Source of the DNA: a virus
IMG/VR virus record: IMGVR_UViG_3300027788_000008
Span: 11,279-75,278 of that record
Reading direction: 5' to 3' (one strand)
Length of the DNA stretch: 64,000 nt
The notes below the pieces were generated by a model. It was not told where the DNA came from. It ran no database searches and saw only the letters and a list, made by a program, of their open reading frames with translations. Positions 31,554 through 60,374 of this stretch are shown here, one piece after another. The position numbers were made by a program, and so were the translations under genes. Within the stretch, counting starts at the first letter, position 1. The number at the start of each line of letters is the position of its first letter.

Positions 31554-32036
31554 ATGACAGTAAAATCAAGAAGATGGGAAGACAATGCATTCTGGCACAA
31601 CCCTGAAAAGGATATGGCGGAAGCAATCCTTATATTACAAGACGAATCGAATCGGGAAATTACTCAAGTCCTTACTGTTCGAAAACTTAACGAGGAAGGC
31701 GACGAGAATTTAGACTTTTTAGAACTTATCAACAGTGTTGGTATTGATAAAATTGACCAGAATACTGAAGAAAGAAAGATTCGCAAGGAGAAGGAGAAGG
31801 AAGAACATTCTATTCGTGAAGAGTCAGAAAAAAATGCGAGGGAACTGGAAAGACTCTTTGACTCCAAGATCAAGATGCTTGCCCTAGAAGATATTTCTTC
31901 TACAAAAAATAAAGTCCTTAAAAGCAAGTTGCGTCGATCGAAGAATATAGTCGAACTGAATATGTATGCACAACTGATCATTATGGAAAAAAATGGAATT
32001 GGATTCGTAACTTATGATACCGAGCAAAAAGACTAA
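31554..32036 (+). CDS. Hypothetical protein (charged, coiled-coil; possible fibre assembly chaperone)
   Basis: 160-aa ORF with SD GGAG; function not recognised. Confidence 0.55.
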   Translation: MTVKSRRWEDNAFWHNPEKDMAEAILILQDESNREITQVLTVRKLNEEGDENLDFLELINSVGIDKIDQNTEERKIRKEKEKEEHSIREESEKNARELERLFDSKIKMLALEDISSTKNKVLKSKLRRSKNIVELNMYAQLIIMEKNGIGFVTYDTEQKD

Positions 32037-32772
32037 AGGTTATCTTATAGTTGCATCCTCAGATGAAATTTATTATCATTGGGCATGCAACCTCCTTGAC
32101 GGAATAAAAGACTTCTACCCAGAAGCAAAGATCTGCCTCGTCACAGAACAAAGATTTCTCGATCACAAAGCAGACCAAGCAGATAAAGTTATTATCTGCG
32201 AAGACCACTATCGCTCTAAACTCTGGGGCATGGCTAACACCCCATGGGATCAAACTTTCTACATGGATGCTGATATGGAAATACTGCATGAGGACATCGC
32301 CAAGGTGTTTGATGAACAAGGCGAATCTGACTTGATGTTCTGTGCACTAGAAGAATCCCACTACCACGTATTCATGGGCGGCAAGTTCCCAGGTGGACAG
32401 TTCGCACTTGCTGGGGCAGTCTGCCTGTATCGCAAGAACAAACTTGTTATGGAGTTCATGCAAGACTGGTATGATTTGTATGTCGACCAGCGTGCAGGCA
32501 ATTGGTGGCCAAAGAATGAATATGGACAACCCGATTATAAACTGTATCCAGAAGACTTGGCCATATGGGACCAATTCACTCTTTGGTGGTTGGTTAATAA
32601 AGAACCCAAGTATTCATCTCTTATTATAGAAACGTTTAAAGACACACTAAAGTGGAACCATTGGTCCACCCTTAACAGGGTAGACTTCCCTTTAAAAGAT
32701 GACACTGTCCTGTTGCATTTATCTGCACGCGCAGCAAAATCGCTTAGTAAGATTGAGATTGATACTATATGA
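32014..32772 (+). CDS. GT-A fold glycosyltransferase (GT8-like/nucleotide-diphospho-sugar transferase)
   Basis: GYLIVAS N-terminus, TPWDQTFYMDAD (DxD), F..GAVCLY, WDQFTLW, WN...LLH. Confidence 0.75.
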   Translation: MIPSKKTKGYLIVASSDEIYYHWACNLLDGIKDFYPEAKICLVTEQRFLDHKADQADKVIICEDHYRSKLWGMANTPWDQTFYMDADMEILHEDIAKVFDEQGESDLMFCALEESHYHVFMGGKFPGGQFALAGAVCLYRKNKLVMEFMQDWYDLYVDQRAGNWWPKNEYGQPDYKLYPEDLAIWDQFTLWWLVNKEPKYSSLIIETFKDTLKWNHWSTLNRVDFPLKDDTVLLHLSARAAKSLSKIEIDTI

Positions 32773-33413
32773 TCGACGTGCCTATACTGAATGCTGATTT
32801 AAAAACCATACTGGATACATTTATCCCTCTGGTTGAATCTATAGACTTTGATAAAGTCTGTCTAACGGACGACATTGTTGATGATTGGTGCAGTGTTGAC
32901 TATTTAAATCGAATAAAAAAAAGAGGGCGCACACATGGTGGATATCCAGCAATTCTGAAAGGTACATGTCCAGAATTCAATTCGTTTGACTACAATGACA
33001 ATGAAGAAAAAACCTCCATTATCTCTAGATTTGATAAAGCGGCCCAAGAAATTGCTTCTTGGTCTGGCGCACGTAACCGAGCATTGTGTGCTGTGTATCC
33101 CCCAGGAGGTTTTATTTCATGGCACAATAATGCCAACGCTGCGGGGTATAATGTTCTGTTTACATGGTCTTCAGAGGGTGATGGACAATGGGAACACATA
33201 GACCCAATGACCCAAGAACACGTAGTTATCCCAGACAAGAAGGGTTGGCAATGCAAGTTTGGATATTATGGAACATATGATGAAACTGACAAATTATTGT
33301 ACCATTGTGCTAGAACAAATTGCCTGCGCTTCACGATAGCGTTTGTATTCAACGCCGACGAAAGAGGTGAATCTATGGCACAGATGCTGACCGAGGAAAT
33401 ATCTGAATACTAA
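32769..33413 (+). CDS. Putative 2OG-Fe(II)/cupin-type oxygenase
   Basis: YPPGGFISWHNN ... YHC ... LRFTIAF gives a DSBH-like H-x-N...H...R arrangement. Confidence 0.55.
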   Translation: MIDVPILNADLKTILDTFIPLVESIDFDKVCLTDDIVDDWCSVDYLNRIKKRGRTHGGYPAILKGTCPEFNSFDYNDNEEKTSIISRFDKAAQEIASWSGARNRALCAVYPPGGFISWHNNANAAGYNVLFTWSSEGDGQWEHIDPMTQEHVVIPDKKGWQCKFGYYGTYDETDKLLYHCARTNCLRFTIAFVFNADERGESMAQMLTEEISEY

Positions 33414-33502
33414 ATAAGGTTAACAAACCATTCAACGAGAACACTCCCTCCACTGCCTCTGGTACTGTAGGAGGAACGATAAACATAATAGGTGCCTAGT
33501 GT

Positions 33503-33619
33503 ATGAGACAAATTACTGTCAAGAAGAAAGACACTCGAAGAATAGTAGTATCTGATAAACAACTACAAAAAGTTGAGATTAAAGAGAAAGAAACAAGATC
33601 GATAAAAATAAAATCCTGA
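33503..33619 (+). CDS. 38-aa basic peptide with ~10-aa periodicity (below ORF-track cutoff)
   Basis: Translates as MRQITVKKKDTRRIVVSDKQLQKVEIKEKETRSIKIKS; AGGTG upstream. Confidence 0.45.
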   Translation: MRQITVKKKDTRRIVVSDKQLQKVEIKEKETRSIKIKS

Positions 33620-33639
33620 ACAAGTAGTTTGGATAGAGA

Positions 33640-33646
33640 CTAAATA
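33640..33646 (+). promoter_or_regulatory. Late promoter variant CTAAATA
   Basis: Intergenic, ~30 nt upstream of the 33675 ORF; shares the TAAATA core. Confidence 0.55.
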
Positions 33647-33674
33647 GAGAAAAGAAACCCAGGACTGAACAAAG

Positions 33675-34037
33675 ATGGCACAGTACGAAGATTTAGAAAT
33701 AGACCAAGGGTCTGATACCAAGTGGCAAATTAAGATGCTACTGGCAGACGGAACCCCAAGAGACATAACTGGATATACAGTCCGTGGTAATGTCAATAGA
33801 AGTTATGATGCAGACAATAGCGAGATGTTAGCGTTCACAACGAGTCTTGTCGCGCCAGCAACAGGTGGTGTCTTAGAGTTCATGTTAACCAATATACAAA
33901 CAGATGCAATGACGCGCAGGCGTTATGTGTATGATCTGGAAGTAGAATACGTCCACCCCTCTAGTGGAGCAACCATTGTAGAAAGAATACTTGAAGGCAA
34001 CCTTGTTGTTTCCCGAAGTGTTAGCAAATTTGATTAA
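33675..34037 (+). CDS. Small virion structural protein (BppU N-terminal-like Ig fold)
   Basis: LEIDQGSD...P.DITGYT...RYVYDLEV....VERILEG.LVV. Confidence 0.65.
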   Translation: MAQYEDLEIDQGSDTKWQIKMLLADGTPRDITGYTVRGNVNRSYDADNSEMLAFTTSLVAPATGGVLEFMLTNIQTDAMTRRRYVYDLEVEYVHPSSGATIVERILEGNLVVSRSVSKFD

Positions 34038-34048
34038 GGAGAAATAGA

Positions 34049-34423
34049 ATGGCGGTAACATTATCAGAAACAGCGCGAAACGGTATTGCGGACTATGTCT
34101 GTGGGAGGATTAATGATGGAGGCACCGGTTCTGTCCGATTCTTTACCTCAGGAAATTCTTTGGTTGCAAAATTAAATTTTTCTGACATCGCGTTTCAACC
34201 AGCAGTAGGAGGAACCGCTGTAAATAACCCCATTTCCCCCGATGCGTTTACACTTGGCGGGGTGATCGACACATTCAAAGTATTCTCTGGCGGCGGAATA
34301 GAGATATTTGGAGGTACATGTAGCGCAATATCTGGCGGTGGCGACATTGAGTTATTTACTCTTACGATCACACCAAACGATGTTGTCGATCTCAGTCGAC
34401 TTACTTTCTCAGCACCATCATAA
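34049..34423 (+). CDS. Hypothetical virion structural protein
   Basis: LSETARN..AD...I....G.VRFFT...LVA.L.F...AF..A.GG.A pattern seen in phage tail proteins. Confidence 0.55.
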   Translation: MAVTLSETARNGIADYVCGRINDGGTGSVRFFTSGNSLVAKLNFSDIAFQPAVGGTAVNNPISPDAFTLGGVIDTFKVFSGGGIEIFGGTCSAISGGGDIELFTLTITPNDVVDLSRLTFSAPS

Positions 34424-34429
34424 AAACCC

Positions 34430-34927
34430 TTGATAGATTTTCGCGGCAAAAAGTGGGATAATTTCGGCAAGGAGTTTATGTCACGGAATTCAAGTTTGTC
34501 CCACTGGGAATGCGATAAATACTTCGTCGGAACCGCATATGACCAAATATTCTTTATGGTTCTTTTCAAATACAAACCGAACGATTTAGTCGAGACTAGT
34601 GTCAAGACTAGTGTCATTGCAGACTGGGACGCAGTACGACTTTGTGGGTTTGATTATAAGCAGAAAATTAAACTAAGAGACATTGCAATTTACGCAGCTG
34701 GAAATTATTTCTTTGAAACCCTCGGACATAACCATGGATATGGGTTCATAAAGAAAACAGACAAGAAGGTCATAAAGTTGATTGATCGTATCAATGAAGC
34801 ACCTATGGAAGAAAGTGGTCTCAGTAGTCCATCAGGCGTGCCATTAATGCGATGGGACTTTTACAAAGAGGATTTTAGGAGGGGTGTGCTCTTAGATCGC
34901 GCAAAGAAGGCAATATATAACTTTTGA
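34430..34927 (+). CDS. Hypothetical protein, possibly GNAT fold
   Basis: YFFETLGHNHGYGFIKKTDKKVIKLIDRI resembles the C-terminal motif of RimJ/RimL-type GNATs. TTG start, so the start position is uncertain. Confidence 0.4.
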   Translation: MIDFRGKKWDNFGKEFMSRNSSLSHWECDKYFVGTAYDQIFFMVLFKYKPNDLVETSVKTSVIADWDAVRLCGFDYKQKIKLRDIAIYAAGNYFFETLGHNHGYGFIKKTDKKVIKLIDRINEAPMEESGLSSPSGVPLMRWDFYKEDFRRGVLLDRAKKAIYNF

Positions 34928-34928
34928 T

Positions 34929-36317
34929 ATGAAATTTTTTATATGTAATGATAGATCCAAATTCACTAAACTGCAACCTGAGAATTATGGTGGGTGGTTT
35001 TTTATACGCGAACCCGACGTTGAAATTTGGGAAGGCGAAGACTGTATTGTTCTATATTGCGGTTACCTGATTGAAGGAGACATACAAGAAGTTTGTAAGG
35101 AATTTAGTTTTAAAGAAGCGAACGGAAACTTCTTTGCAGTTAAACTGACAAAGGATAATTATGAGATATCAGTAGACTATTTTCAGAACCATAAACTATT
35201 TGTATCCACCAAATACGGGACAGAAATAAGCAACCACATCCCTTATATGACGATCGAAGACATAGACCACACTAGGATATGGGTTGAATCGGATGATTAT
35301 GGTCGTGAGTATTCTGATGCTGCCCGCACAACCTACTATGATCACATCTCAATATTCAACCCCCAATATAATTACATACAAGATGCCAAAGATTCTCATG
35401 CTCAAGAAGTCTGGCAAGACCTTGATGAACTCACCGAATACATACACCAATGTATGCAGCACCACTCAGAAGTAATCAAAGAAAAGTATCCGTTACGATA
35501 CTGTTCTCTCAGTGAAGGAATAGACTCTGCCTTGCAATCAGTTTTCTTCCCTGAAGACCTCCAACTTCTCTATACTGTAGACACAGCAGATTCAGAGCAA
35601 CATTATGATTTGATCAAACTTGCACAAAACAACTTTCCTAACACAAACAGATACACATACAAATCAAGACGGAACCGTAAAGATTGCTTAACCCATCTGA
35701 TAGATTCTTCCTGTCGCTGGACGTCGATAATCCCTACATTCAGACATCTTAACATGCAAAAAATTAAACCTGATATTTTTATGTATGGGGTTAATGGTAA
35801 TGAAATGTTTGTTAGAGATTTGATACCGCACGTGCTCGTATTATTTTTAAAATACTATAGTAGTGATACGTCTTCAATGATAGATAAGATTAAATCTGAC
35901 ATTTATGATAAAGGTGATATGTATGGTTCCGCATACACTAACTCTGTCGACTACGATTTTGAAGGAACTGTCGATACATGTATAGAAATGTACAGAGGTT
36001 TGTCATACGAGGAAATCGAAGATATTTTGATGATACTCTCTACACCCAAATTATACACGCGCACTATATCCAGTAACAACAACGTCCTTTCTGCATCATT
36101 ATATAATGACAGGAGAATATTTCACGAGGTTATGAAAGGTAGAAATGACTGGTTAGAAACCAATGCAATGGATGCACCGATCATGCGCGCAATACTGGAT
36201 AAATATGACTACAACTTTGTCACCCCAAGGAATTGCACTCTTAGTGCTGACTATGAACAACTGAATTACACCGCACATGAGGCAACTGTAGAACGAGACA
36301 TTAGACAAAATATATAA
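34929..36317 (+). CDS. Asparagine synthetase-like ATP-dependent amide ligase lacking the N-terminal Cys
   Basis: PP-loop SLSEGIDSAL, GVNGNEMF (cf. GEGADELF), degenerate Ntn-like N-terminus (ANGNFFAV, VDYF). Confidence 0.65.
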   Translation: MKFFICNDRSKFTKLQPENYGGWFFIREPDVEIWEGEDCIVLYCGYLIEGDIQEVCKEFSFKEANGNFFAVKLTKDNYEISVDYFQNHKLFVSTKYGTEISNHIPYMTIEDIDHTRIWVESDDYGREYSDAARTTYYDHISIFNPQYNYIQDAKDSHAQEVWQDLDELTEYIHQCMQHHSEVIKEKYPLRYCSLSEGIDSALQSVFFPEDLQLLYTVDTADSEQHYDLIKLAQNNFPNTNRYTYKSRRNRKDCLTHLIDSSCRWTSIIPTFRHLNMQKIKPDIFMYGVNGNEMFVRDLIPHVLVLFLKYYSSDTSSMIDKIKSDIYDKGDMYGSAYTNSVDYDFEGTVDTCIEMYRGLSYEEIEDILMILSTPKLYTRTISSNNNVLSASLYNDRRIFHEVMKGRNDWLETNAMDAPIMRAILDKYDYNFVTPRNCTLSADYEQLNYTAHEATVERDIRQNI

Positions 36318-55639: not shown

Positions 55640-55668
55640 TTGACATCTCAATCCCTTTCGGTTAAAAT
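55640..55668 (+). promoter_or_regulatory. Sigma70 promoter TTGACA-N17-TAAAAT driving the DNA-modification cluster
   Basis: Perfect -35, 17-bp spacer, 5/6 -10; SD GAGG before the ATG at 55692. Confidence 0.82.
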
Positions 55669-55691: not shown

Positions 55692-57089
55692 ATGGAAACA
55701 CTAACAATAGGTGGTCGCTCTTGGCAAAAGAGCATTGGTGATCAGGGGCAAGATGTATATGTCGCCTTGTTCATCGAAGACTCCGAAGCACTCAAAGGTC
55801 AATATCCAGAAGAAAGTCACTTTGACATTGTCGTTGACCAAGACGCAGACTTCTACATGCCCTCTACTGGCGTTGAAGATGAAGGACTGAACGAAGATCG
55901 AATTGCATTCAAATTCCGCAAAAATATTTTTACGCAAGAAGAACAAGACGGTGCATATGCTGGTCTGTTCGATGCTGCTATTGAATCAAACAACAGAGGT
56001 ATGGCAGCGGGACCACGCGAAGAGTCTCAGGGCAATCGCGACTGGGTCACGCAGTACCAGATCAATGTTCTGACTTGGTTCGAAAACGGACAACCACCAA
56101 ACATTGATGGGTCTGAACCTCTTGCTGAGTTTGCCGCCATACCAGATGACGACGAGAATCGTGGTGGTGTTTGGTTGCGCACCAAAGTCGAACCAGAGTT
56201 TGGTACATACACTGACTTCTTTCCACTTCTACTGACTAAACTGCGAGTGATGACACTTGGGGAAGCAAAAGAATATGTTGCAAAGATACGCAAAGAATTT
56301 ATTTCAGATACTATGTATGCTACTGCTATTTGGTCTGGGATTGCTGGGTTCTATGGTCGTTACCCTCGTATACCTTATGGTCGTGCTACTGCATTCACTG
56401 ATCATAACCGCGAAGTATTTGAGAAATGCTATCCGTTTGCACGTCGACTAGACCAAACTTTTGTTGACCTGCTACCAGTTCGCCACGCACGTCAGAAGTT
56501 GCGCGCTGACAGTATGGATCCAAAGTTTCTAATTGGTGAAGACACCACGTTCACCACCATCACAGTCAACACGACAACCAAAGATCGCAATGCGCGTATG
56601 GCATGTCACCGTGACTCTGGTTCTTTGAACGAAGGTTTCAGCAACCTGACTGTCATCAGTGATGGCAAGAAAGACTGGAAGGGTGGTATGCTAGTATGCC
56701 CTGAAGTTCGTGCTGCTATCAATATTCGTCCAGGTGATCTACTGTTGGTTGACAACATGCGTATCATGCATGCTAATACTCCAATTGAGGCACCTGACTC
56801 TGGCGAAGATGACTTGATGCGTATGTCACTTGTGTTCTACTTCCGTGAAGATATGTTGAAGTTGGGTACATGGGAATACGAGCACCTGCGTCGAGCATAT
56901 GTTGACTCACGTCGACTGAACGAAGAACACAAACTCTGGCGACCATACTGGAACGGTGTGTCACCGAGCATGTGGGACGACAATGAATGGTACGACTGGT
57001 TGATAGACAACGGTGGTGAGGAGATGACTCGAAAGTATCACCCCGAAGCATTTGATGTTGCTAGCACCCTTGATGAATTCTTTGGATAG
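55692..57089 (+). CDS. TET/JBP-family 2OG-Fe(II) dioxygenase (5-methylpyrimidine oxidase)
   Basis: FTTITVN...ACHRD.G...GFSNL...GG.LV.PE..A...RPGDLLLVD...MHANT...RMSLVFYFRE, i.e. HxD...H...R. Confidence 0.85.
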   Translation: METLTIGGRSWQKSIGDQGQDVYVALFIEDSEALKGQYPEESHFDIVVDQDADFYMPSTGVEDEGLNEDRIAFKFRKNIFTQEEQDGAYAGLFDAAIESNNRGMAAGPREESQGNRDWVTQYQINVLTWFENGQPPNIDGSEPLAEFAAIPDDDENRGGVWLRTKVEPEFGTYTDFFPLLLTKLRVMTLGEAKEYVAKIRKEFISDTMYATAIWSGIAGFYGRYPRIPYGRATAFTDHNREVFEKCYPFARRLDQTFVDLLPVRHARQKLRADSMDPKFLIGEDTTFTTITVNTTTKDRNARMACHRDSGSLNEGFSNLTVISDGKKDWKGGMLVCPEVRAAINIRPGDLLLVDNMRIMHANTPIEAPDSGEDDLMRMSLVFYFREDMLKLGTWEYEHLRRAYVDSRRLNEEHKLWRPYWNGVSPSMWDDNEWYDWLIDNGGEEMTRKYHPEAFDVASTLDEFFG

Positions 57090-57097
57090 GAAATATT

Positions 57098-57370
57098 ATG
57101 ATCGATTACAAGTACAATGAAGAAGCACTGATCAAAGAACTCCAAGAGTATGTGGACGTCACTTATGGACAACACTACTCGCAGGATAAAGTGCAGACAA
57201 CTGAGTTTGTCATTGATGCAGGACACGGTGAAGGTTTCTGTCTCGGAAACGTCATCAAGTACACCCAACGATATGGTAAGAAAGAAGGCAAGAACAGGAA
57301 GGACTTGTTGAAAGTGTTGCACTATGGTTTGATTGCCTTGCATGTTCACGATCTGGAAGCAGGTGAATGA
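57098..57370 (+). CDS. DUF3310-like protein (T7 gp1.7 nucleotide kinase-related)
   Basis: HY...Q..E.I...G.GFCLGNVIKY..RYGKK.G...DLLK..HY. Confidence 0.75.
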   Translation: MIDYKYNEEALIKELQEYVDVTYGQHYSQDKVQTTEFVIDAGHGEGFCLGNVIKYTQRYGKKEGKNRKDLLKVLHYGLIALHVHDLEAGE

Positions 57371-57519
57371 AGAAGATCTGGTACAAGCAAAATAAAAACG
57401 GTACAGTGACATTCTATGAAGACACAAACCGCAAAACAGGTACATACAGCAACCGCAAAGCAAACTTTGCATATCCCAAATTCATATATGAGTGGATAGA
57501 AATACCATGTGCGGAGTAA
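57367..57519 (+). CDS. 50-aa hypothetical protein (below ORF-track cutoff)
   Basis: Translates as MKKIWYKQNKNGTVTFYEDTNRKTGTYSNRKANFAYPKFIYEWIEIPCAE. ATGA overlap upstream; overlaps the GATase start. Confidence 0.55.
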   Translation: MKKIWYKQNKNGTVTFYEDTNRKTGTYSNRKANFAYPKFIYEWIEIPCAE

Positions 57520-58190
57520 TTGGCGTACACCTGCCTGAAGTTCGCGCAGTGCACGATGCGCGGCTCGCTCTGGTCGAGAATCTATTTCTACAGAGCATGA
57601 TTCGTGGCAAGCATGCCACGGGAGTTACCTTTCTAAAACAAGGCAAACTCACCACAATCAAAGAAGGCATCAGTGCCGACAAGTTCATGGAGAAGCACAA
57701 TGTTGCTGACTGGGTTGATGGTGACTCACTCACGCTGATTGGTCACATTCGATACTCTACCTCTGACCTGCGACACAACCAACCATTCCAAGGTCGTGAG
57801 ATGGCAATTGCGCACAACGGTGTTATCTCCCAAGACCCAGATGTTTGGGAATACGAAACAGAAACCCAAAACGACTCTGAGTTGATACTACGATGCATCG
57901 AGGCAGGAGACACTCCTCTCGAGGCGTATCGCGAACGTTCTATGGCAGTGACCGCTATTGATGTGGATGGTAATCTGACAGGGTGGCGCAACCATGAGCG
58001 TCCACTGTGGATGGCGACTGACATAGGTGGGTTGATCTTTGCATCTACTTCGGATATAATAGAGAGATCTGGCATGGGGAAAGCAGTGAAATGCGATCCG
58101 ATGGTTAGATACATATATAATGACTACAGTGGACTGGTCGAAGACCGCACTCACTTTTCAGAAAACGATATGTTGGCAGATTTGCAATGA
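57507..58190 (+). CDS. Stand-alone class II (Ntn) glutamine amidotransferase
   Basis: Start at ATG 57507 gives MCGVIG (Cys1 nucleophile), plus RGKHATG, GHIRYST, NQPF, HNG, NDSE. Confidence 0.88.
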   Translation: MCGVIGVHLPEVRAVHDARLALVENLFLQSMIRGKHATGVTFLKQGKLTTIKEGISADKFMEKHNVADWVDGDSLTLIGHIRYSTSDLRHNQPFQGREMAIAHNGVISQDPDVWEYETETQNDSELILRCIEAGDTPLEAYRERSMAVTAIDVDGNLTGWRNHERPLWMATDIGGLIFASTSDIIERSGMGKAVKCDPMVRYIYNDYSGLVEDRTHFSENDMLADLQ

Positions 58191-58834
58191 TCACACGGTA
58201 CAACCAAGAGCAAGTTGAGAAACTGATTGCGGAACAACCTGAAGGAACTAACACCAAGTTCCTCAAGTCTTCGCACAACCTGTGGTTTCGATTTAAGAAT
58301 TATACCAAGAACCCACCGTTTGTGTTGCTCGATGGTGAAGAACCAGTTGCTCTGGTCTTCATCACATTCAGTGCACGATCAAAGTATGCCAACCTATATG
58401 AGATTGTTACGCTTGAAGGCAAAGAAGGTAATGGATACGCTTCCATTGTATACTGGGACGTGATGGCAGAAGCATACAAGCAGGGTATGCAGCGACTCAA
58501 GATGTCATGTACTCCATCGTCAGTGACTTGGCACAAACGCAACGGCACCATCTTTTGGGCAGTTGACCCCAGTGGTTCCCTGCGCTGTGACGTGCCTTTA
58601 TTTCCAAACAAGCACGAGCAGTTGACGTTCCGTGAGTTGGCAATCAAAGACAATGAAGTTGCCCTGCCACCGCAAAAGGTTGCTGATAAACTCAGAGATG
58701 AATGCATTGAACTGCACAAGTTTGGTGTCAAGAAAACAGAGAAGGTCGAGACTGCCATTGAAGCAGTGGGCGACTACTGGTTCCGTGAAGCATTATTTGA
58801 ACCAACCCATTTCTCTCTTGATGCATTTCTATGA
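58187..58834 (+). CDS. GNAT-family acyltransferase
   Basis: NLYEIVTLEGKEGNGYAS resembles GNAT motif A ((Q/R)xxGx(G/A)); downstream 'SVTWHKRNG'. ATGA-coupled on both sides. Confidence 0.7.
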   Translation: MITRYNQEQVEKLIAEQPEGTNTKFLKSSHNLWFRFKNYTKNPPFVLLDGEEPVALVFITFSARSKYANLYEIVTLEGKEGNGYASIVYWDVMAEAYKQGMQRLKMSCTPSSVTWHKRNGTIFWAVDPSGSLRCDVPLFPNKHEQLTFRELAIKDNEVALPPQKVADKLRDECIELHKFGVKKTEKVETAIEAVGDYWFREALFEPTHFSLDAFL

Positions 58835-59826
58835 CAGACAGCAAGGAAATATTCACTCAGTGGTTTGGTCGTGGTCTTGAAATCGAAGACTGTGATCCAT
58901 CTCTGTATCTACAGAATTATTTCTTTGACCGTTTCGAGTACAACACAGAGCAGCGTCTGTGGATCTCTTGGATATATGGCACTACCTACTTTTGGCCAAC
59001 TTCATATGTTGTTTGGAACGAATTTCCAGATATGGAGTTGGTAGGTCTGGAGCGTTTACGCGATTGGAACAACACCAACTACAAGCGTTTGCGTTACCAG
59101 ACAGACACCAAGTGGAACAAAGGTCACCTGCCTGCACAGTTTGAGTCGTACAGGGACTATGTTGGTGACCGTACACAGCACGAAGCACTGACTGCCAACT
59201 TTGTTGGTGACCCTGTCAAGGACTTCTACACTCTGTGGGATACAGTCAACACATGGCATAAGTTTGGCAGGTACACCACTTGGTTCTACATACAGACACT
59301 CAAGCAGACGTGTGGCATTGATGTTGACGTTGACAGTCTGTGGTTCCATGACCGTAATGGATCCAAGTCGCATCGCAATGGTATGTGCTATGCCATGGAC
59401 AAACCTGAGTGGGTCGACTCAAAGAAGAACAATGTGAAACTCGACGCCACCCAGATTGACTTCCTTGAAGCAAATGGCAGGGAGATACTACAAGAAGTGA
59501 AGTTGCGGTATCCGCACGTTGCTGACAAGGCAGACTTCTTTGCTATGGAAACCAGTCTGTGTTCCTTCAAGAAATTATATCGACGCAGTCGTGGTCGCTA
59601 CCTTGGTTTCTACATTGACCGTCAGGCAGAAGAGATCAAGAAAGCAGAAGCAGATAACTGGGAAGGCATCGACTGGACACCACTGTGGGATGCCCGCAAG
59701 GAATCACTGGAGTCAAAGTGGTTGCTGGATACAGTCGACCCTGACCTATACAACCTGTTTCTTGACACAGGTAATTTTGAACCAGACGATCGCACTGTTG
59801 GCGGTCTTGAGGCATTCTTTGTATGA
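58831..59826 (+). CDS. Amino acid:DNA transferase (aGPT-PPlase/AADT family, HhH-glycosylase-like fold)
   Basis: D.DP, QRLW.SW.YG.TY, FGRYTTWFYIQTL, SHRNGM, METSLCSFKK, RYLGFYIDR. Confidence 0.8.
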   Translation: MTDSKEIFTQWFGRGLEIEDCDPSLYLQNYFFDRFEYNTEQRLWISWIYGTTYFWPTSYVVWNEFPDMELVGLERLRDWNNTNYKRLRYQTDTKWNKGHLPAQFESYRDYVGDRTQHEALTANFVGDPVKDFYTLWDTVNTWHKFGRYTTWFYIQTLKQTCGIDVDVDSLWFHDRNGSKSHRNGMCYAMDKPEWVDSKKNNVKLDATQIDFLEANGREILQEVKLRYPHVADKADFFAMETSLCSFKKLYRRSRGRYLGFYIDRQAEEIKKAEADNWEGIDWTPLWDARKESLESKWLLDTVDPDLYNLFLDTGNFEPDDRTVGGLEAFFV

Positions 59827-60374
59827 AATTGATCTACCTAATTGGGATTCCTGGAACGGGCAAGTCCACCATCATGAAAGAGTTTATGAAGACTCAAGGT
59901 GAGTGGACGCATGACCGTCCAATTGACCTGCTTGATACTCACGTGGCAGGGAACGTCCGTGTCCTTGGCAAATATTCCGAAGAGGAAACATTCAGTGGCA
60001 CTGACCGATTGAGTATGGCAGTGGCACCCAAAGCAGTTGAGTGGATCTTGGACAAACCAGATGAGTTCATAATTGGTGAAGGTGACCGTCTTAACAATGC
60101 GGGTTTCTTCAGAGCAGCAGGTGACGACCTCACCATTATCCACCTGACCGTATCGGACGCAGAACGTGAGCGCAGATACAGGCAGCGTGGTTCCGACCAG
60201 TCTGAGAAATTCATCCAGACTACACGCACCAAATGCAAGAATATCCTCGAGAAGTTTGGCGACCAGCACACGCTGTTTGGTACTGAACTCGGTTGCGTGG
60301 TTGAGTTCCCCCATGAATCACCAAATGACACACAGATCGTTGTCGATTATCTGGTATCCTCGCTAACTTGTTGA
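59823..60374 (+). CDS. P-loop kinase of the type that accompanies AADT genes (candidate 5-hydroxymethylpyrimidine-DNA kinase)
   Basis: LIGIPGTGKST, LGKY...FSGTDRLSMAV, GEGDRL, R..RGS.Q.EKF. Confidence 0.8.
   Translation: MKLIYLIGIPGTGKSTIMKEFMKTQGEWTHDRPIDLLDTHVAGNVRVLGKYSEEETFSGTDRLSMAVAPKAVEWILDKPDEFIIGEGDRLNNAGFFRAAGDDLTIIHLTVSDAERERRYRQRGSDQSEKFIQTTRTKCKNILEKFGDQHTLFGTELGCVVEFPHESPNDTQIVVDYLVSSLTC

Follow-up and report, generated by a model that had tools for sequence, protein, structure and literature searches.

The window, a 64,000-nucleotide stretch of viral DNA, belongs to a T4-like phage and carries at 55.6–60.4 kb a run of genes (Table 1) that is best explained as a single thymidine-hypermodification operon, including the TET/JBP oxygenase gene, which the first-pass annotation of 57507–59826 had left unmentioned. 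The genes of the stand-alone glutaminase (GATase), the GNAT-fold protein, the amino acid:DNA transferase (AADT) and the kinase overlap by ATGA at all three of their junctions (...CAATGATC, ...CTATGACA and ...GTATGAAA, in this order). The ORF coordinates and junction sequences thus bear out the gene order and the coupling from GATase through GNAT to AADT that the first-pass annotation had described for 57507–59826. The remaining elements are less distinctive. The DUF3310 gene usually lies next to the kinase gene in related loci, according to synteny tables, and conservation of the small basic ORF is limited to the nearest relatives. Sigma-70-like promoters are no more frequent in the region than in shuffled sequence (11 versus 8.8).

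Table 1. Genes and candidate promoter of the modification locus.
Feature	Coordinates	Strand	Basis and remarks
Sigma-70-like promoter TTGACA-17-TAAAAT	55640..55668	+	11/12 consensus match only; TET/JBP start lies 24 bases downstream
TET/JBP-family 2OG/Fe(II) dioxygenase, 465 aa	55692..57089	+	PF12851 1.7e-14; phrog_24024 2.8e-135
DUF3310 small protein, 90 aa	57098..57370	+	PF11753 2.8e-13
Basic ORF, 50 aa, pI 9.4	57367..57519	+	13-base overlap with GATase start
Stand-alone class II (Ntn) GATase glutaminase subunit, 227 aa	57507..58190	+	PF13522, PurF alignment, AF2/Foldseek
GNAT-fold putative acyltransferase, 215 aa	58187..58834	+	AF2 model and Foldseek
Amino acid:DNA transferase (AADT, formerly aGPT-Pplase2), 331 aa	58831..59826	+	PF18724 1e-23
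P-loop nucleotide kinase 3, likely 5-hmdU DNA kinase, 183 aa	59823..60374	+	PF18751 2.1e-17

By sequence, the TET/JBP-family protein is likely a thymine dioxygenase that produces 5hmU in DNA. The gene content agrees with that of 5mYOX clusters: PF12851 is found in the window, and neither a C5-methyltransferase (PF00145) nor a ThyA-family gene (PF00303) was found in a close relative, G001, whose 85% completeness means that absences there are not absolute. A 5mC/5hmC route was set aside because G001 has no C5-methyltransferase, and a nucleotide-level route to 5hmU because it has no ThyA-family gene. Searches of the phage's own contig and of G001 likewise returned no DAO-type flavoenzyme (PF01266), such as a glycinylthymine lyase of the PaMx11 type, no radical SAM enzyme (Radical_SAM) and no Amidoligase_2 or gamma-glutamyl ligase. 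For 55.6–60.4 kb, the earlier statement holds that enzymes of the PLP, radical SAM and flavin types are lacking from the cluster. Two further candidate partners for the GATase were discarded: a 462-aa ORF at 34929–36317, for lack of a credible Pfam match, and an amidoligase hidden elsewhere in the genome, none being present in the own contig or in G001.

The GATase gene begins ATG TGC GGA GTA ATT GGC and encodes M-C-G-V-I-G, with a cysteine directly after the initiator methionine. The product matches PF13522 (GATase_6) at 5.8e-10, passing the cut-off, and Pfam searches found no second domain in its 227 residues and no fused synthase domain. Alignment with PurF equates C2 with Cys1, R82 with Arg73, Y83 with Tyr74, T85 with Thr76, N104-G105 with Asn101-Gly102, and D123 with Asp127. 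M1-C2-G3 and the PurF-type glutamine and oxyanion residues are invariant in 28 homologues, and the C-terminal DLQ is invariant as well. Such a complete and invariant glutamine site indicates that the GATase is an active enzyme, one predicted from these residues to recognize either L-glutamine itself, in free form, or a gamma-glutamyl amide whose alpha groups are unblocked. Its AF2 model (pLDDT 91) has the Ntn alpha-beta-beta-alpha fold, with GlmS and PurF glutaminase domains as the top Foldseek matches (E 1e-10, TM 0.66–0.70); the sequence-profile matches, too, are only to true amidotransferase glutaminase domains (GlmS, PurF). The MCGVIG start, the PurF-site residues and the Pfam result therefore uphold the previous description of a stand-alone Ntn glutaminase with an intact Cys1 and no synthase domain. 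The family comprises more than 1,400 sequence clusters in environmental data.

The GNAT fold of the neighboring protein is confirmed at the level of the structural model. By sequence, PF00583 scores 19.8 bits, below the 20.7-bit cut-off, and many homologues do carry PF00583 in a precomputed table; the AF2 model has a pLDDT of 94 and retrieves SpeG, GCN5 and PaiA in Foldseek at probability 1.0 (E ~3e-6). The acyl-CoA pyrophosphate loop between beta4 and alpha3 reads G78-K-E80-G81-N-G83, with E80 and G83 invariant; compared with the motif Q/R-x-x-G-x-G/A, it has G instead of Q/R at the first position. A helical C-terminal extension of ~75 aa follows. The family numbers ~600 clusters in metagenomes; tblastn gave no match in isolate phages, and a sequence search of the PDB was empty. 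Comparison with PaMx11 gp48 by hhalign gave a probability of 1%, and on this sequence comparison the two proteins are not orthologous.

Among characterized AADTs, the closest by sequence is ViI gp247, at 28–30% identity. The putative catalytic Cys244 of the window's AADT is invariant and aligns with PUGT Cys247 in the motif ETxLC; this low-scoring alignment was obtained only by a local HMM comparison with all filters off, which weakly matched the Cys motif as well as the FG(R/P) region. In the weak alignment, the PUGT glycine binders Trp146 and Lys150 correspond to Y148 and F152. No link between the AADT family and PaMx11 gp46 was detected by hhalign, and sequence searches of the PDB with the AADT were empty. 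No module lacks the P-loop kinase. When the operon was compared with isolate phages by megablast, no match was obtained.

The association of these genes extends far beyond the window. Among 119 non-redundant viral loci, 88 contain both a GATase and an AADT gene, and wherever the relevant flank extends for 4.5 kb or more, neither gene is found alone (88 of 88 informative loci hold both). The loci were picked in two ways, by GATase and by AADT, with the same outcome, and such strict co-occurrence shows that the module is not a chance neighborhood. Nearly every complete cluster also carries a gene of the GNAT type. The survey that the first-pass annotation had called for thus came out in favor of its interpretation. 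Gene order varies, with the TET gene located before the GATase gene or between those of the AADT and the kinase, and the gene set is unchanged. Type B relatives also carry a gene of 440–495 aa with weak ParB-like leads; the window's cluster contains no ParB-like gene.

A multimer model of GATase and AADT, likewise proposed earlier as a check, passed with a median ipSAE of 0.78 (0.80, 0.59 and 0.78 in individual runs), compared with 0.00 for the best of three controls; 58 of 80 solved complexes attain that mark, as do 2 of 110 mismatched pairs. At least 75% of contacts are common to the runs, with a pLDDT of at least 88 for the partners. The model is a prediction from alignments built in this analysis and, as no similar solved complex exists, its pass is unlikely to reflect memory. 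The predicted complex brings the active-site faces of the two proteins together but does not show a channel. The modeled interface on the GATase is the rim of its active site (residue 1, R33–H36, Y83, T85, S86, V106, Q109, R165–P166 and S180–T181) and also includes the invariant C-terminal L226-Q227, for which we have no other explanation. On the AADT, the predicted contacts are R34-F35-E36-N38-E40, N63-E64-P66-D67 and G279-I280. Both surfaces are composed largely of family-invariant residues: 14 of 21 interface residues versus 41 of 227 overall in the GATase (p=2e-7), and 12 of 20 versus 82 of 331 in the AADT (p=6e-4). The AADT motif RFE(Y/H)N (R34-F35-E36-x-N38) is invariant among GATase-linked AADTs and missing from the three GATase-less AADTs that we compared (Cr30, JAMaL and ViI). 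According to the model, the GATase probably docks onto the AADT as a separate subunit. No GATase-AADT fusion was found among the longer homologues, a search that constitutes weak evidence; the lone fusion joins the GATase to an amidoligase.

We propose that the TET/JBP enzyme would convert thymine in phage DNA into 5-hydroxymethyl-uracil, which the P-loop kinase would phosphorylate to 5-phosphomethyl-dU. As in AADT relatives, the phosphate would then be expelled via Cys244 of the AADT, giving a reactive 5-methylene intermediate. The AADT-bound glutaminase would hydrolyze glutamine at Cys1 and pass ammonia into the nucleophile pocket of the AADT, so that 5-aminomethyl-dU would form directly, with no amino-acid adduct. 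Acylation of this primary amine by the GNAT would yield 5-acetylaminomethyl-dU or another acyl form; the presence of a GNAT-type gene in nearly every complete cluster fits a capped primary amine, as in PaMx11. We infer all chemical steps from gene content, coupling, intact catalytic residues, co-occurrence and the modeled interface, and on the same basis favor transfer of ammonia over cleavage of a gamma-glutamyl adduct, with 5-aminomethyl-dU as the presumed product that the GNAT then acylates. Taken as a whole, the proposal that GATase and AADT form a two-subunit glutamine amidotransferase converting 5-phosphomethyl-dU to 5-aminomethyl-dU in DNA, followed by GNAT acylation, has in our estimate an even chance of being correct. 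That the two form a heteromeric amidotransferase whose ammonia acceptor is the phosphorylated base inside polymeric DNA we rate slightly short of even. The nucleophile of characterized AADTs is an amino acid or putrescine, and we know of no AADT that uses ammonia.

The residues conserved in the GATase bind the glutamyl moiety and are common to EgtC, the gamma-glutamyl amidohydrolase of ergothioneine synthesis, which is also a stand-alone class II GATase-fold protein (~230 aa, with Cys1) but acts as a hydrolase and not as an ammonia donor. The window's protein might work in this manner: the AADT or another enzyme would attach a gamma-glutamyl compound (glutamine via its amide nitrogen, a gamma-glutamyl-amine or glutathione), and removal of glutamate would bare an amine for acetylation by the GNAT, much as in the mercapturate and ergothioneine pathways. 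EgtC structures match the GATase model (E 6e-9, Foldseek rank 24), the predicted docking onto the AADT also suits hand-over of an adduct, and PaP3-type systems pair the same fold with amidoligases and a gamma-glutamyl cyclotransferase. We nevertheless regard this explanation as unlikely. GlmS and PurF glutaminase domains outrank EgtC by fold and are the sole matches by sequence profile, a comparison that returned no match to EgtC; in the AADT reaction, an amide nitrogen would perform poorly as a nucleophile, and the Cys1 site, being buried in the interface, would be almost inaccessible to a base flipped into the AADT pocket. The lineage of the window also lacks a gamma-glutamyl ligase.

Ammonia from the GATase could alternatively be consumed by an ATP-dependent amidoligase instead of the AADT, which would convert the free carboxylate on an adduct of thymine and an amino acid to a carboxamide; in this scheme the ligase would be gone from the lineage of the window, and the GATase retained there would have a diminished or altered function. 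An Amidoligase_2 gene comes directly after that of the GATase in about half of the related loci (types B and C), and one contig encodes a 527-aa GATase-amidoligase fusion (P0241), which together make the amidoligase a second candidate partner of the GATase in such loci; Lee et al. (2021, PMC8989533) also named together, beside such clusters, genes that match amidoligase and glutaminotransferase families in Pfam. The fusion, however, is confined to this single short contig and could have arisen by one indel at the ATGA overlap. No amidoligase gene is found in 38 of the 88 complete loci, the window's among them, or anywhere in the 85%-complete G001, yet the GATase catalytic residues are all kept in these loci and the AADT-docking residues are invariant whether or not a ligase is present, which makes this alternative improbable as an account of the window. 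We rate as very improbable that GATase and GNAT work on small molecules before transfer, for example by freeing or acetylating a polyamine or another amine that the AADT then installs, with a SpeG-like GNAT, or that both are auxiliary metabolic genes with no connection to DNA. Spermidine N-acetyltransferases are indeed the top fold matches of the GNAT, and the phiW-14 AADT uses putrescine (PMC8989533), but Foldseek ranks inside the GNAT superfamily tell little about the substrate. An unrelated role is at odds with the translational coupling to the AADT and kinase genes and with the strict co-occurrence, and a purely metabolic role of the GATase is at odds with the predicted GATase-AADT interface.

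Hypermodification of thymidine shields phage DNA from host nucleases and has been a source of enzymes for DNA labeling and sequencing chemistry. Should the two-subunit amidotransferase proposed here be real, it would be, to our knowledge, the first amidotransferase known to act on polymeric DNA, and its glutaminase would be unusual within class II in functioning as a separate subunit. It would also open a flavin-free, glycine-free route to 5-aminomethyl-dU and define a new family of bases made by variable tailoring (GNAT alone, amidoligase plus GNAT, and an optional ParB-like gene). The size of the environmental GATase and GNAT families suggests that this chemistry may be common in aquatic T4-like phages. 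Direct enzymatic amination at 5hmU sites in DNA would be a useful tool, and the DLQ tail of the GATase and the RFE(Y/H)N motif of the AADT provide named interface residues for mutation.

The gene association itself is already published: GATases beside TET_JBP, kinase and AADT genes were noted in metavirome 5mYOX clusters (O'Toole et al., PNAS 2026, PMC13229309). These clusters have the same gene set as the window, except that the window's has no ParB-like gene. Both that study and PMC8989533 give the association for the ParB-dependent subclass and assign no role to the GATase; a specific role is what the present analysis adds. The best-understood related system is the gp46–gp49 pathway of PaMx11, which leads to 5-acetylaminomethyl-dU, with gp48 acetylating 5-NmdU (Lee et al., NAR 2021, PMC8989533; structures in PMC11472151). 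PaMx11 and the window share a 5-hmdU DNA kinase (a likely one in the window), a PF18724 AADT with a catalytic Cys (Cys247 in PaMx11, to which the putative C244 of the window aligns), a GNAT protein (an acetyltransferase in PaMx11, a putative one in the window) and, likely, an end product of the same type. In PaMx11, however, 5hmU comes from the nucleotide pool, glycine is installed and the FAD enzyme gp47 trims it to 5-NmdU, whereas in the window 5hmU is likely made in situ by the TET/JBP enzyme, there is no flavoenzyme and a glutaminase stands in for gp47. Divergence from gp46 and gp48 puts the window's AADT and GNAT beyond detection by hhalign.

Salmonella phage ViI, a large myovirus, encodes the closest characterized AADT (the serine:DNA transferase gp247) and the kinases gp67 and gp243; it differs from the window in having a PLP decarboxylase and no GATase or GNAT, and its AADT lacks RFE(Y/H)N. 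The nearest GATases of isolate phages are longer fused proteins of other systems. PaP3/LUZ24-like phages and CW02 encode class II GATase domains 26–28% identical to the window's next to COOH-NH2 ligases, but as fused proteins of 437–517 aa, with no AADT, kinase or TET gene nearby and no C-terminal DLQ region, the matches stopping near residue 200. With PurF, GlmS and AsnB, the GATase of the window shares the N-terminal Cys nucleophile, the full glutamine site and the alpha-beta-beta-alpha fold. The glutaminase of those enzymes forms one polypeptide with its synthase domain, whereas here it is a separate protein, predicted to pair with an all-helical DNA-modifying transferase and proposed to have a base in polymeric DNA as its acceptor.

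The genes on the + strand near the operon encode T4-type replication and recombination proteins (UvsW, gp55, gp47 and gp46), so the source of the window, the final 64 kb of a 75,278-base viral contig, is by gene content a T4-like phage. A DNA search of the operon against isolate phages returned no close relative; the TET/JBP dioxygenase shares 68% protein identity with its counterpart in phage C48C1 (Kyanoviridae), and 49% and 38% with its counterparts in Stenotrophomonas phage DLP6 and Caulobacter phage Cr30, respectively. The metagenomic contig G001 (locus L004; 153.9 kb) is a near-identical relative, with 93–99% protein identity over the whole operon.

Features of the modification operon and of a separate group of ORFs in the window
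Feature	Position	Strand	Evidence or remark
ORFs neighbouring the 462-aa ORF	31554-34927		nothing in Pfam at E 0.1 or better
462-aa ORF	34929-36317		no Pfam match better than E 0.01
Promoter-like site, TTGACA-17-TAAAAT	55640-55668		directly upstream of the TET gene
TET/JBP dioxygenase	55692-57089		PF12851
DUF3310 protein, 90 aa	57098-57370		between TET and GATase
Basic 50-aa ORF, pI 9.4	57367-57519		13-base overlap with the GATase start
GATase	57507-58190	+	PF13522, 5.8e-10
GNAT-like gene	58187-58834	+	just below Pfam threshold; model matches GNAT fold
AADT	58831-59826	+	PF18724, 1e-23
P-loop kinase	59823-60374	+	PF18751, 2e-17

The first-pass annotation described a class II glutamine amidotransferase (GATase) gene coupled through ATGA overlaps to a GNAT gene and an amino acid:DNA transferase (AADT) gene. 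All three genes lie as described, with the kinase gene next in line and ATGA overlaps at all three junctions. The modification module extends beyond the stretch first described; upstream lie the TET/JBP, DUF3310 and 50-aa ORFs. The near-consensus sigma-70 site before the TET gene suggests that the operon may be transcribed early by the host polymerase. The AlphaFold model of the GNAT-like protein (pLDDT 94, from an alignment of 30 homologues) matches GNAT acetyltransferases with a Foldseek probability of 1.0; its family comprises 600 clusters in environmental data. The 50-aa ORF is kept, at 50–74% identity, in the nearest relatives only (L004, L005, L006, L011 and L012). A DUF3310 gene lies directly 3' of the kinase gene ("KIN p90") in most loci of types B and C, defined below (L052–L091, L097–L141), and the domain is also fused to nucleotide kinases in PHROGs (phrog_236); the DUF3310 protein may be an overlooked component of the module.

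Viral loci were gathered by GATase and by AADT queries, and 119 were left after duplicate removal. Consistent with the partnership first proposed, GATase and AADT occur together in 88 of them, the remainder being cut too short to tell, and among loci with at least 4.5 kb of relevant flank neither gene was ever found alone. The position of TET varies (before GATase, or between AADT and kinase), and the gene set is constant down to a GATase identity of 33–40%. Type A, that of the window (38 loci), consists of GATase, GNAT, AADT, TET and kinase. Type B contains GATase, an Amidoligase_2-like gene (weak Pfam match), a canonical 180-aa GNAT, often a 440–495-aa gene, and then AADT and kinase; type C is similar, but its GNAT is a distant relative of the window's. 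The 440–495-aa gene, located between GNAT and AADT (L009:9141-10628, L016:8599-9930 and homologues), has no Pfam match; weak ParB_N and DndB leads in the protein atlas (scores 0.80–0.84, TM about 0.3) are compatible with a divergent ParB activator of ParB-dependent T-dioxygenases, which it might be. The GATase family spans 1,445 clusters at 90% identity in environmental data, where no GATase or GNAT cluster carries an informative name. In some lineages, an NAD-dependent epimerase/dehydratase gene (PF01370, 2e-21) is found between TET and GATase or after the kinase (L021:5627-6340, L039, L042, L030), which hints at extra sugar-type tailoring. The cultured Caulobacter phage Cr30 (L003) encodes TET, AADT and kinase across about 9 kb without a GATase; its AADT and kinase are 24% and 32% identical to those of the window, and the phage might be used as a GATase-free comparison in experiments.

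Neither a C5-cytosine methyltransferase nor a member of the ThyA family, which includes dUMP and dCMP hydroxymethylases, was found in G001, where gene absences are not absolute given its 85% completeness (CheckV). The most probable role of the TET/JBP enzyme is thus that of a thymine dioxygenase making 5-hydroxymethyl-uracil (5hmU) in DNA. Formation of 5hmU in DNA has been demonstrated for phage 5mYOX enzymes (PMC13229309), and Lee et al. (PMC8989533) suggested a thymine dioxygenase role in contigs of this kind. The initial observation that the cluster lacks flavin and radical SAM enzymes holds more widely: no DAO-type flavoenzyme, radical SAM enzyme, Amidoligase_2 or homologue of the type B amidoligase is present in the cluster, its own contig or G001. 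With all of these absent, the window's lineage would rely solely on TET, kinase, AADT, GATase and GNAT.

The GATase had been read as a stand-alone glutaminase domain with an intact Cys1, and indeed it begins M-C-G-V-I-G and matches only glutaminase-domain families in Pfam. PurF was the sole match in a PDB profile search (8.8e-6), and every residue of its glutamine site aligns to a position that is invariant among the phage proteins: Cys1 to C2, Arg26-Gly27 to R33-G34, Arg73 to R82, Tyr74 to Y83, Thr76 to T85, Asn101-Gly102 to N104-G105 and Asp127 to D123. In PurF, Tyr74 links the enzyme's two active sites. The best fold matches of the AF2 model (pLDDT 91) are the glutaminase domains of GlmS and PurF, with the stand-alone hydrolase EgtC at rank 24. 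Since the PurF glutamine site is kept, the GATase probably recognizes L-glutamine, or a gamma-glutamyl amide whose alpha-amino and alpha-carboxyl groups are both free, a requirement that argues against its acting on an N-alpha-linked glutaminyl-thymine.

Multimer prediction for GATase and AADT (28 alignment rows each) gave a median ipSAE of 0.78 (runs 0.80, 0.59 and 0.78), against 0.00 for the highest-scoring of three controls. Of 80 solved complexes, 58 pass the benchmark mark of the tool, as do 2 of the 110 mismatched pairs, counts that hold only roughly for user-supplied alignments. The runs share at least 75% of contacts, with partner pLDDT of at least 88, and a memorized pass is unlikely because no similar complex has been solved. 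The model supports binding of the GATase to the AADT. The predicted interface comprises GATase residue 1, R33-G34-K35-H36, Y83, T85, S86, V106, Q109, R165-P166, S180-T181 and L226-Q227, and AADT residues 33–40 (D-R-F-E-Y-N-T-E), N63, E64, P66, D67, L70 and 278–287. Invariant residues are enriched there in both proteins (AADT, 12/20 versus 82/331 overall, p=6e-4; GATase, 14/21 versus 41/227, p=2e-7, explained in part by closeness to the active site). L226-Q227 belong to a D-L-Q sequence at or near the GATase C-terminus (58176-58190), invariant across all aligned homologues, which contacts AADT N38-E40 in the complex model; the monomer model is weaker there (last block pLDDT 66). All 28 GATase-linked AADTs aligned carry the motif R34-F35-E36-x-N38, which was not found in the AADTs of Cr30, JAMaL and ViI, three phages without GATase, and may well be a docking motif that evolved jointly with the GATase. 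An approximate mapping through Pfam profile coordinates would put AADT segments 33–40 and 63–70 near positions equivalent to Asp24, Tyr47 and Tyr51 of PaMx11 gp46, which form the wall of the pocket that faces the C5 substituent.

The ammonia-fed route proposed in the first-pass annotation gains partial support from gene co-occurrence and the GATase–AADT model, and is compatible with the intact catalytic site and the missing other tailoring enzymes; we infer each of its chemical steps. TET would convert thymine in DNA to 5hmU, and the kinase would convert this to 5-phosphomethyl-dU. The AADT would then form a 5-methylene intermediate via Cys244, a Cys-dependent mechanism established for AADT relatives (PMC8989533, PMC11472151). 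Glutamine-derived ammonia from the docked GATase would yield 5-aminomethyl-dU, to be acylated by the GNAT; in types B and C, the amidoligase would couple this amine to a carboxylic acid or amino acid before or after acylation. We give this full pathway to acylated 5-aminomethyl-dU roughly an even chance of being correct.

Of the competing explanations, an EgtC-like gamma-glutamyl amidohydrolase agrees with the fold and stand-alone state of the GATase but requires either an improbable nucleophile or a ligase absent from this lineage, and we regard it as unlikely. The GATase might instead supply ammonia to the amidoligase, a role supported by adjacency of the genes and by one fusion: P0241 (527 aa, on a 2.7-kb metagenomic contig) joins this GATase family to an amidoligase of type B that has 58% identity to L009:7669-8541, and it could be a genuine Rosetta-stone protein or have arisen from an indel at an ATGA overlap. 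Such a role, however, leaves unexplained both the 38 ligase-less loci with a fully intact GATase and the invariance of the AADT-docking residues with or without the ligase, and we hold it to be quite improbable. Slightly less probable still is that the GATase and GNAT act on small molecules or are unconnected to DNA.

The nearest characterized pathway to the proposed ammonia-fed route is that of phage PaMx11 (gp46–gp49), in which glycine is installed and glyoxylate is removed by an FAD enzyme to give 5-aminomethyl-dU, which is then acetylated. The kinase, AADT and GNAT classes are common to both systems, whereas the FAD enzyme occurs in PaMx11 only; lacking it, the window does not qualify as a member of that pathway, although the end product may be a similar base. 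The association of GATase with kinase and AADT genes is already known: Lee et al. (PMC8989533) described, next to kinase and AADT genes, genes of unknown function that match amidoligase and glutaminotransferase families in Pfam, as well as contigs bearing TET_JBP, and O'Toole et al. (PMC13229309) state that GATases, P-loop kinases and AADTs consistently accompany ParB-dependent T-dioxygenases. Neither study, nor any other paper found in our literature search, assigned a role to the GATase. What is new here is the model-supported hypothesis that GATase and AADT form a two-subunit glutamine amidotransferase directed at DNA, for which specific residues are named as targets for testing.
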